Source of the DNA: Promethearchaeati archaeon SRVP18_Atabeyarchaeia-1
Lineage (GTDB): Archaea > Asgardarchaeota > Atabeyarchaeia > Atabeyarchaeales > Atabeyarchaeaceae
Assembly: GCA_037308085.1 (NCBI GenBank)
Contig: CP147779.1
Span: 2,048,001 to 2,112,000 of the forward strand
Reading direction: 5' to 3'
Length of the DNA: 64,000 nt
Shown here: positions 25,135 to 27,180 of the stretch, piece after piece
How positions within the stretch are numbered: position 1 is the stretch's first letter
Layout of the letters: each line of letters starts with the position of its first letter
Notes under the pieces: generated by a model
The model's input: only the letters and a program-made list of their open reading frames with translations
Databases searched by the model: none
Told to the model about the DNA's origin: nothing
Position numbers and translations under genes: made by a program

Positions 25135-27180
25135 ATGAGAAGGCTCTCTTATCGAAGCGCAGGCTCGCTAACCTGCAAAGCAGTTGTCATAATGATCCTC
25201 GCGTTGTCAGTAGTAGCATCACTGCAGCCGCTGCTTGTGACTGCAGGCAAGCATAGCCAGTGGGCAAATCCTGCAGCAATGGCAGTAGTTGGGGGCCAGG
25301 AACCGACGGAAGCGAGCCCCCCAGCAAATGTGACAACGCACTGGACCTACGGCGCGGGCCAATGGGCTGTTTCTTCTCCAGTCATCGCCGACGTGAACCG
25401 AGATGGTAAACTGGAGATAATCGTAGGCTCTATGGACAACAAGGTCTACTGCTTGAATAGTGGAGGCGGATTAGCCTGGACATACACGACTGGGAATTAT
25501 GCCTATAATGTCGGCGCTGTCGCGGACATTGATAACGATAGCAAGGTGGAGGTAGTCTTCGCCTCATGGGATCGCAAGATCTACTGCCTGGATGGAGCAG
25601 GCGGGCAAAAGTGGAACTACACAACGTACCCCAACGTTCCAGGATACTGCCTGTTGGTAGGTTCTCCTACCCTCGCAGACATCGACGGCGACGGCAAGAT
25701 GGAGGTAATCATAGCTTCCGACAAAGTCTGGTGTCTGAATAGTACGGGTGGATTAAAGTGGGCATACAACCTGGGCGAACCTGCCGGGGACTCATGCAAA
25801 GTCGCTGACGTTGACGGGGATGGCAAGATGGAGATAGTGTTCGGGGCATACGACAACAAGGTCTACTGCCTCAACGCAACGGGCAAACTGGAGTGGACAT
25901 ACACAACGGGAGGTGCTGTCAGAACCTCATCTGCAATCGCTGATGTGGACGGAGACGGCAAGACGGAGATAGTCATAGGCTCAACTGACAACAAAACCTA
26001 CTGCCTAGGCGGAACAGGCGGGCTTAAGTGGAGTTTTGAATCTGGAGGCGTGATCTTCTCTTCTCCTGCGACCGCCGATGTTGATCAAGACGGCAAGGTA
26101 GAGATAGTGTTCGGCTCAGATGACAGCAGGGTTTACTGCCTAAGTGGAGTATCCGGCGCAATGAAGTGGAACTACACAACAGGAGGCTATGTCCAGTCTT
26201 CCCCTACAATCGCTGACATTGACGGAGATTCGAGGCTAGAGATAATTATCGGGTCGGACGACCGGCAAGTCTACTGCTTCGACGCGTTCGGCAACGTAGA
26301 GTGGACATACGCAACGGTGGGAAACACCACTACAAAGCCTGCTGTTGCAGATGTGGACGGCGATGGTGCATTGGATCTTGTCGTTGATTCGGATAAGGTA
26401 TACTGCTTCAGCGTTCCTCCAAGTCGTACGAGCTTGATTTGGGGCTCTATGGATGGCTGGACGATCGGGGGTGGCATCGCCCAGTCGTTTGACGGCACAG
26501 CTGGTGGCTGGGTGGAGATCGACATGCAAGTCTCATCTGGGATGTTCAACTTCCTAGTCTTGGACAACAGCGACTGGAGCGCCCACTATAACACTTTTCC
26601 CTACATATTTGATCATCCTTATGCCAATGCCACGGGAGTCACGGGAAACACCACGGTGTTCGTCCAGATTCCTCTGAGCGGGCAGTACTGGATCTACATC
26701 AACACCTATGGTGCACCCATGAACAATAACAGTGCCTCATATCAGGTCTGGCTCTGGAATCAGACTCCACCTAGTCAGACGGGATCTTTGCCTCCAGGCC
26801 AGACGGGATCGACGCCTTCGGGAAGCATTTCGCCACTTGTTGTCTGGCTAGGCGTCGGATCCGTGGGCTTCGCCGTGGTGGCGGTTCTAGCGGTGAGGGG
26901 AAGAAGTAAGGCGGGGAGGTACATCCCCGGTGAAAGCGCGGCGGGCCCAGAAGCGACAGTGGGGACGGCTGGCAGTGATGGGCGGGCAATGCGCGAGTCT
27001 GGTACACCAAGCTTTGGGCGATGCATCGTCTGCGGCATGGAAATTCGCCGAGGAGAGATGCTTGTCACATGCGCTTCGTGCGGAAGCATGGCCCACAGAC
27101 TGCACATGCTGGAATGGTTACACGTCCATGATTACTGCCCGGCCTGCGGAAAGCACCTAGATGAGCGATCTCTCACGTGA
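25135..27180 (+). CDS. Type-I membrane protein: signal peptide, 8 FG-GAP/PQQ-like propeller repeats, beta domain, TM helix, cytoplasmic RING-like zinc finger
   Basis: 8 x AD(V/I)DxDGxxE repeats; TM VVWLGVGSVGFAVVAVLAV then RGR; C-x2-C-x12-C-x2-C-x4-H-x2-H-x10-C-x2-C. Confidence 0.88.
   Translation: MRRLSYRSAGSLTCKAVVIMILALSVVASLQPLLVTAGKHSQWANPAAMAVVGGQEPTEASPPANVTTHWTYGAGQWAVSSPVIADVNRDGKLEIIVGSMDNKVYCLNSGGGLAWTYTTGNYAYNVGAVADIDNDSKVEVVFASWDRKIYCLDGAGGQKWNYTTYPNVPGYCLLVGSPTLADIDGDGKMEVIIASDKVWCLNSTGGLKWAYNLGEPAGDSCKVADVDGDGKMEIVFGAYDNKVYCLNATGKLEWTYTTGGAVRTSSAIADVDGDGKTEIVIGSTDNKTYCLGGTGGLKWSFESGGVIFSSPATADVDQDGKVEIVFGSDDSRVYCLSGVSGAMKWNYTTGGYVQSSPTIADIDGDSRLEIIIGSDDRQVYCFDAFGNVEWTYATVGNTTTKPAVADVDGDGALDLVVDSDKVYCFSVPPSRTSLIWGSMDGWTIGGGIAQSFDGTAGGWVEIDMQVSSGMFNFLVLDNSDWSAHYNTFPYIFDHPYANATGVTGNTTVFVQIPLSGQYWIYINTYGAPMNNNSASYQVWLWNQTPPSQTGSLPPGQTGSTPSGSISPLVVWLGVGSVGFAVVAVLAVRGRSKAGRYIPGESAAGPEATVGTAGSDGRAMRESGTPSFGRCIVCGMEIRRGEMLVTCASCGSMAHRLHMLEWLHVHDYCPACGKHLDERSLT
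25345..26415 (+). repeat. Eight coding tandem repeats of ~42 aa (~126 nt), beta-propeller blades
   Basis: Recurring W.Y.TG...SSP..AD.DGDG..EI..GS.D..VYCL. Confidence 0.85.

Follow-up and report, generated by a model that had tools for sequence, protein, structure and literature searches.

A propeller-bearing membrane protein with a cytosolic RING-type tail as a candidate membrane-anchored ubiquitin ligase of an Asgard archaeon

[quoted passage not shown] To our knowledge, work on the ubiquitin–ESCRT system of Asgard archaea has so far centred on soluble, operon-encoded parts, and we know of neither a physiological membrane substrate nor a substrate-selecting ubiquitin ligase (E3) for it. Prokaryotic RING fingers have a foundational survey in that of Burroughs, Iyer and Aravind (2011). 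Among the operon-encoded systems, a cascade of activating enzyme (E1), conjugating enzyme (E2) and RING protein from Caldiarchaeum has been reconstituted (PMC5654768), and the E1, E2 and RING E3 of a Helarchaeial operon are active in vitro (bioRxiv 10.1101/2023.07.25.550441). The complete genome of ‘Ca. Atabeyarchaeum deiterrae’ (Atabeyarchaeia-1), a wetland-soil member of the Asgard archaea, has also been published, in a paper that just lists ‘RING finger domain’ among the eukaryotic signature proteins (PMC11291895). Here we describe a gene of this genome (G000; a single contig of 2,808,651 bp) for a protein that joins a β-propeller to a RING-type tail across a transmembrane (TM) helix. The gene lies in a stretch of 64,000 nucleotides (G000:C1:2048001-2112000), hereafter the window. 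Our full-text literature searches found no description of a transmembrane or receptor-like Asgard RING protein; an earlier mention of TM-linked prokaryotic RINGs is possible.

The propeller–TM–RING protein (Table 1) is very probably a surface propeller protein with a cytosolic zinc domain of RING fold. It is best explained as one whose RING acts as a membrane-anchored E3, a reading to which we give a probability of about 0.65, and it makes a good candidate for a ubiquitin ligase that, although not eukaryotic, is anchored in the membrane and built like a receptor.

The first-pass annotation of this stretch had taken the C-terminal tail for a RING-type finger, with PHD or C1 as the alternative, and had given its spacing as C-x2-C-x12-C-x2-C-x4-H-x2-H-x3-W-x6-CPxC. 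The spacing is exact (C630, C633, C646, C649, H654, H657, W661 and C668-P-A-C671), and in an alignment of 23 paralogues from the source genome all eight ligands and the Pro after the seventh are invariant. Run against 1.84 billion proteins, a profile of the family matches 6300 cluster representatives (E ≤ 1e-3); given these matches and the invariance of the ligands, chance does not account for the zinc motif. In Pfam, the tail matches best to Prok-RING_1 (PF14446; 28.4 against a cut-off of 29.1, model positions 6–32 of 54) and zf-RING_2 (PF13639; 22.6 against 27.3); both scores fall short of the cut-offs, and the tail was therefore tested by its paralogues, by fold and by profile. Paralogues with the identical signature do pass: the RING of the ubiquitin operon described below and a further one (L006, 27.5) with zf-RING_2, and several others with Prok-RING_1 at 31–36 bits. 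An AlphaFold2 (AF2) model of the domain, computed from the 23 paralogues, has a predicted local distance difference test score (pLDDT) of 90.3. In a Foldseek search of the PDB, the top 50 matches of the model are RING or U-box E3 domains only (TM-score 0.75–0.81, root mean square deviation 1.2–2.5), including Rad18, TRAF6, RNF165, RNF13 and RNF38. Scanning 48,161 chains independently with VIA-align likewise gave only RING and U-box domains in the top 50 (Z 6.0–8.7). Searched against solved structures, the family profile matches RNF24 (E 7.6e-10), Arkadia (5.9e-09) and EL5 (2.3e-08), and by sequence it also matches ZNRF3, RNF13, AMFR and Hrd1. PHD, C1 and FYVE domains occur in the top 50 of neither fold search, an absence that by itself excludes no family, and for PHD the PDB profile search gave two weak, partial matches to the PHD region of KMT2D (E 5e-3 and 6e-3, profile positions 6–33). 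Taken together, the searches favour a RING over PHD or C1.

That the tail is instead a double zinc ribbon, two independent ribbons with nucleic acid or some other molecule as their ligand, and not a cross-braced RING, is very improbable indeed. Such a ribbon is suggested by weak, sub-cut-off Pfam matches to DZR, Zn_ribbon_6 and similar families (E 5e-4 to 1e-3) and by the JGI annotation of one homologue as a ‘Zn-ribbon RNA-binding protein’, but these matches are weaker than those to RING families, the central helix with its invariant aromatic residue and the spacing of the eight ligands fit a RING, and RING E3s predominate in both fold searches as well as in the profile search of the PDB. As to its class, hidden Markov model (HMM) alignment to RNF24, Arkadia and EL5 reveals a C-x2-C knuckle in place of the canonical C3-x-H4 and a His as ligand 5 as well as ligand 6. 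By sequence, the tail is a RING-H2 variant like the small RING finger protein (srfp), the RING E3 of Caldiarchaeum, with a ligand spacing that is compatible with a cross-brace. The Nse1/C4HC3-type RING that had been suggested earlier was rejected on the same alignment, with its C-x2-C at ligands 3 and 4.

A ubiquitin system, on which the first reading of this tail as a ligase depended, is indeed encoded in the genome. Single genes for ubiquitin (G000 331446-331697) and for a canonical E2 (331840-332253; UQ_con, 107 bits) lie with that for an E1 of ThiF type (332363-333298) in a single cluster that also holds EAP30/Vps36, Vps28 and UEV-Vps23 (ESCRT-I/II). The cluster has a RING of its own, a protein of 83 amino acids (aa; G000 330916-331167) with a zf-RING_2 score of 29.6 bits (cut-off 27.3), a ligand signature identical to that of the tail and 43% sequence identity to it. 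A predicted complex of the E2 (L026:9840-10253) with the RING reached a best score of 0.24 against a mark of 0.32, was computed without controls, and speaks neither for nor against binding. A gene resembling TnpB/Cas12f1 (TNB domain, 42.7 bits; L026:4172-5434, minus strand; G000 ~326171-327433) is also found inside this cluster, between the EAP30/Vps36 and Vps28 genes. The BRO1-like gene 31 kb from the propeller–TM–RING gene, once cited as a sign of an ESCRT connection, was dropped as an argument because such a distance is not linkage; moreover, no Pfam BRO1 match was found genome-wide, a negative that says little, since the control genomes gave none either.

The putative E2-contact residues of the tail are V632, W661 and P669. 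Across 148 copies of the family, Val or Ile stands two positions after the first ligand in 146, an aromatic residue occupies the Trp position in 147, and Pro follows the seventh ligand in all 148. In srfp, mutation of the equivalent Ile and Trp impaired ubiquitylation in vitro, and the same departure from the canonical ligands 3 and 4 has been described for this E3 (PMC5654768). Sequence, model and analogy together suggest that the RING probably works as an E3 with the single E2.

The tail belongs to a large family. Twenty-three ORFs (open reading frames) of the source genome carry the identical RING signature by regular expression and 29 by profile, about half of them behind TM helices, and the profile finds 1 to 35 copies in each of 110 of the 151 genomes sampled from the same phylum. 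By the same profile, a congener (G001) has 10 copies and a second member of the family Atabeyarchaeaceae (G002) has 12. Among the best 150 of the 6300 family representatives, a TM helix precedes the RING in 89, a pattern in which many membrane proteins have come to carry a copy of the operon-type RING, and in 21 more than 250 residues lie ahead of the last TM helix. Partners of the RING in the source genome include an SBP_bac_5 ectodomain with TM helix, CarboxypepD_reg with TM helix, HEAT repeats and an arrestin fold. Three of these sister genes share with the window protein both the RING type and the outside–TM–inside plan: an 827-aa protein (L009, G000 1849898-1852381) with signal sequence, SBP_bac_5 domain (141 bits), TM helix, zinc ribbon and RING, a 726-aa protein (G000 2355502-2357682), and a CarboxypepD_reg–TM–zinc ribbon–RING protein. 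They differ from it in their ectodomains, and the window protein has no zinc ribbon between TM helix and RING. One E2 thus appears, from gene content, to serve up to 29 RINGs, a eukaryote-like layout of few E2s and many E3s, placed at the cell membrane. Two further observations concern this family. Three tandem genes 16–21 kb before the window (L015, L016 and L017; G000 2026880-2031514) combine Arrestin_N/C with a zinc ribbon and the same RING type. At G000:C1:1327503-1327943 (plus strand), two RING-profile matches lie ~280 nucleotides (nt) apart in one frame, possibly one protein with tandem RINGs, a disrupted gene or genes that lie side by side; the second of them and the RING match at 1677084-1677254 (plus strand) contain one in-frame TAG each.

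The whole design recurs as well, in P0011, P0021, P0066 and P0107/P0270. P0011 (699 aa) is 34% identical to the window protein over 96% of its length, with a RING that is 57% identical, and P0270 (WXG47477.1), from the sister genome G002 (2,756,679 bp), has 32% identity and lies at a non-syntenic position. Unlike the window protein, every one of these homologues carries a zinc ribbon that separates its TM helix from its RING. The window RING is 57, 50, 44 and 41% identical to the other propeller-linked RINGs and 59% identical to that of an unrelated paralogue of its own genome, values that cannot separate a single origin of the architecture from repeated shuffling because the domain is too short. 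Behind the same kind of ectodomain, other cytosolic domains are found. A 1127-aa protein of another Asgard archaeon (L034:2303-5686, minus strand; G006:C2) has an FG-GAP/PQQ propeller, a TM helix near aa 577 and, beyond it, a PCI-like segment and a Ser/Thr kinase (Pkinase, 165 bits), and by its domain order looks like a receptor kinase. P0013 (1039 aa, annotated Promethearchaeia) and P0113 (1107 aa) are propeller–TM–TIR proteins (TIR_2, 62 and 59 bits), which would make TIR a third cytosolic output of one ectodomain type. In most proteins with a homologous propeller ectodomain, of which P0032 is an example from the source genome itself, nothing but a TM helix and a few basic residues comes after it. 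For a sensing or targeting role of the propeller, the strongest argument from comparison is that RING, kinase and TIR replace one another behind a single type of ectodomain.

The ectodomain itself is well defined over most of its length. The eight DxDxDG-bearing, FG-GAP-like blades seen in the first-pass annotation are borne out by motifs, Pfam and structure prediction. Eight D-x-[DN]-x-[DN]-[GSDQ] motifs, at aa 86, 131, 182, 225, 270, 315, 361 and 406, are spaced 43–51 aa apart with a period of 45 aa, each followed by the strand pattern ‘kvYCL...G..kW.Y’, and the DNA has eight repeat units with a period of 135 nt and 62–81% identity. Pfam scores exceed the cut-offs for FG-GAP (91.9 bits, cut-off 22.1), FG-GAP_3 (133.7), PQQ_2 (51.2) and related propeller families. 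The AF2 model, computed from 46 homologues, has eight blades of four strands with pLDDT above 90, and its best Foldseek matches among solved structures are eight-bladed (TMt 0.74–0.94), led by the designed Cake8 (0.94) and including Bacillus YxaL, BamB and Vibrio cholerae Bap1. The C-terminal domain, too, is modelled with confidence in this full-length prediction. The propeller is probably calcium-stabilised and N-glycosylated. Of the β domain proposed to follow it, the strands are again predicted, but the domain as such is weakly confirmed because pLDDT is below 50 and Pfam has no match; a search of aa 432–548 gave nothing beyond Golvesin_C at E 0.11. The stalk reads TPPSQTGSLPPGQTGSTPSGSISP. 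It contains a 24-nt tandem duplication (window 26767-26814; PPSQTGSL/PPGQTGST), a sign of a recent change in stalk length.

The signal peptide or anchor, the stalk, the single TM helix and its basic inner flank all stood up to hydropathy analysis, modelling and inspection of the sequence. The N-terminal hydrophobic core spans aa 14–37 behind an n-region that contains RR, and hydropathy indicates a single TM helix beyond it. All 12 N-x-S/T sequons fall within the predicted ectodomain; together with the positive-inside flank RGRSKAGR, this places the RING in the cytosol. The predicted topology after signal processing is therefore type I, with the N-terminus outside and the C-terminus in the cytosol. 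The linker between helix and RING lacks the zinc ribbon present there in most homologues.

In the mechanism that we infer, the eight-bladed propeller would be held outward on its flexible stalk, the single helix would pass through the membrane, and the RING-H2-variant domain at the cytosolic end would bind zinc and recruit the genome's single ubiquitin-charged E2. The RING would then promote transfer of ubiquitin to lysines of its own protein or of nearby membrane proteins, with the binding partner of the propeller setting the placement or clustering of the E3. Whether binding by the propeller governs E3 activity is doubtful, and it is unlikely that the products feed UEV-Vps23/ESCRT sorting. 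It is similarly unlikely that Asgard archaea already had ligand-responsive, single-pass receptor E3s feeding that pathway. In such a receptor, the propeller would bind a ligand outside the cell or the surface of a neighbouring cell, clustering would gather the RING tails, the single E2 would ubiquitylate the receptor or adjacent membrane proteins, and UEV-Vps23/ESCRT would sort them. If this were true, ubiquitin-dependent down-regulation of surface proteins would predate eukaryotes, and a single kind of sensor would connect to RING, kinase or TIR outputs in the manner of a modular toolkit for transmembrane signalling. The TM-RING genes are, in any case, concrete and clonable candidates for asking whether membrane-protein ubiquitylation existed before eukaryogenesis.

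Several points weigh against the reading of the window protein as a membrane-anchored E3. It is a prediction from sequence and models, and ligand binding by the propeller and its transmission inward would be further assumptions. Within the tail, the two best Pfam scores are below cut-off, the arrangement of ligands 3 and 4 differs from that of canonical RINGs, the otherwise conserved Pro after the third ligand is Ala, and the linchpin position directly after the eighth ligand (C8+1) is Gly672, with Lys673 at C8+2. Within the genome, the gene begins at G000 2,073,135, 1.74 Mb from the ubiquitin cluster (~330,900), and the adjacent genes have unrelated metabolic or transport functions. No ortholog is found at the syntenic locus in G001 or G002, and a search of 40 relatives gave propeller matches only, none over the full length; by these two results the gene is either young or quick to evolve, and purifying selection across its complete architecture would be a supposition.

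Part of this evidence would also suit a surface adhesin or glycan-binding protein with a RING fold but no E3 activity, whose finger might serve in dimerisation, in cytoskeletal or ESCRT anchoring, or in binding of ubiquitin or UEV. Several eukaryotic RING or U-box partners are inactive. Since a TM helix with a brief basic stretch after it is all that follows most homologous propellers, surface display would suffice as a role, and the fold matches of the tail include non-ligase or scaffolding RINGs such as those of GATOR2 and IFT-A. The lack of the canonical linchpin Arg/Lys directly after the eighth ligand and the sub-cut-off Pfam scores point the same way. However, the linchpin is not conserved in this RING family, in which just 32 of 148 copies have Arg or Lys at C8+1, and the shifted basic residue is a family trait, since the operon RING has Asn at C8+1 followed by Arg at C8+2. 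Furthermore, the same type of domain is the E3 of the genome's ubiquitin operon, and the three E2-contact positions are nearly invariant throughout the family, a constancy not readily expected of a domain that did no more than anchor. We thus consider a non-catalytic adhesin improbable and retain the membrane-anchored E3 as the preferred reading.

The evolutionary status of the locus bears on a further alternative, a young chimeric gene that arose by domain shuffling, is little or not expressed and has no settled function. In both G001 and G002, flanks collinear with the window carry genes for a MocA oxidoreductase, a small ORF, a metallo-β-lactamase (MBL) hydrolase, a major facilitator superfamily (MFS) transporter and DUF362, and the MBL and MFS genes are direct neighbours that point the same way, with ~130 bp between them in G002. 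In the source genome the MBL gene is inverted and the propeller–TM–RING gene stands between the two. Because MBL and MFS abut in the relatives and are separated by this gene here, gene order indicates that it is a lineage-specific insertion in a genome with an expanding RING family. The synteny breakpoint is window 23752-28640 (against L036, G002:C1:2250000-2269999, and L037, G001:C44:1-12000), and a stretch of ~1.2 kb at window 22518-23752 is also absent from G002. A search of 22–28 kb for repeats flanking the insertion or inversion gave weak inverted pairs only, none convincing. Absence from the MBL–MFS junction of both relatives, the position at a local inversion, the 29 RING copies against 10–12 in G001 and G002, the lack of the zinc ribbon found in the other propeller–TM–RING proteins and the membrane-proximal region that is not confidently folded would all agree with a chimera. 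Yet the frame of 681 codons, the eight calcium-loop motifs and the eight zinc ligands are all intact, the propeller is modelled at pLDDT above 90, a TATA-like box and an RBS-like stretch of its own precede the gene, and the same architecture occurs in at least four other organisms or metagenomes. Such a chimera is accordingly quite improbable. As one more, evolutionarily young member of the TM-RING set, the gene carries its weight in the pattern more than in the locus.

The ORF is uninterrupted from either GTG 25105 or ATG 25135 through 27180 on the plus strand. ATG 25135 is the likelier start, judging from the G-rich stretch and the TATA-like box (Table 1). An 87-aa ORF without a Pfam match (window 27161-27424, plus strand), which is a candidate gene only, occupies the 230 nt that separate the RING gene from the MFS gene, sharing 20 nt with the end of the former and 14 nt with the start of the latter.

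Table 1. Features of the propeller–TM–RING gene and its predicted product, in window coordinates (RBS, ribosome-binding site)
Feature	Position	Strand	Basis
TATA-like box ATTTATAG, ~58 nt 5′ of the ATG	25070..25077	+	Consensus resemblance, read from sequence
G-rich RBS-like stretch AAGGGGGAAG, abutting ATG 25135	25125..25134	+	Read from sequence
Whole coding sequence, propeller–TM–RING protein (P0001), 681 aa	25135..27180	+	ORF analysis, Pfam, AF2 model
Signal peptide or signal anchor, aa 1–38	25135..25248	+	Hydropathy; helix aa 11–37 in AF2 model
Eight-bladed FG-GAP/PQQ-like β-propeller, aa 64–430	25324..26424	+	Pfam, motif period, AF2, Foldseek, DNA repeats
Membrane-proximal β-rich region, aa 432–542, four sequons	26428..26760	+	Strands predicted, pLDDT <50
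Pro/Ser/Thr/Gly stalk, aa 543–566	26761..26832	+	Sequence; 24-nt tandem duplication (repeat D5)
TM helix, aa 567–589, basic cytosolic flank RGRSKAGR	26833..26901	+	Hydropathy peak 2.45; AF2 helix aa 568–587
Disordered cytosolic linker, aa 590–626	26902..27012	+	pLDDT <50; comparison with P0011, P0021, P0066, P0270
Cytosolic RING domain, aa 627–681 (C-terminal 55 aa)	27013..27177	+	Paralogue alignment, AF2, Foldseek, VIA-align, profile

Compared with known systems, the propeller agrees in blade number and fold with BamB of E. coli, YxaL, Bap1 and Cake8. It has the FG-GAP calcium-loop motif in all eight blades, and none of these four is joined to a cytosolic RING. FG-GAP repeats with DxDxDG loops are also common to the propeller of integrin α, to which the first-pass annotation had likened it; this likeness does not extend to the blades, seven in integrin and eight here, with Cake8, YxaL and BamB as the best matches, and an integrin-like propeller was rejected on blade number. 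The RING, in turn, is of the same RING-H2 variant as the srfp-type E3s, namely those of Caldiarchaeum subterraneum, of the Helarchaeial operon and of the 83-aa operon RING of this genome. In all of them an extra Cys two residues ahead of the third ligand replaces H4, and they have in common the signature C-x2-C-x12-C-x2-C-x4-H-x2-H-x10-CPxC together with the Val/Ile, Trp and Pro. The srfp proteins are small, soluble and encoded beside ubiquitin, E1 and E2, whereas the window RING forms the end of a 681-aa surface protein. In this respect it resembles eukaryotic PA-TM-RING ligases (RNF43, ZNRF3, RNF13, RNF24-like) and plant ATL/EL5, which share with it an ectodomain, a TM helix and a cytosolic RING-H2. 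The window protein is predicted to follow the PA-TM-RING plan, from a signal peptide and an ectodomain through one TM helix to a RING in the cytosol. It differs from these ligases in the geometry of ligands 3 and 4 and in its ectodomain, which is an FG-GAP/PQQ propeller without a Pfam match to the protease-associated domain that they carry. Since no homology to eukaryotic TM RING-H2 ligases was found outside the RING, the architecture common to both is best read as convergent or independently shuffled.

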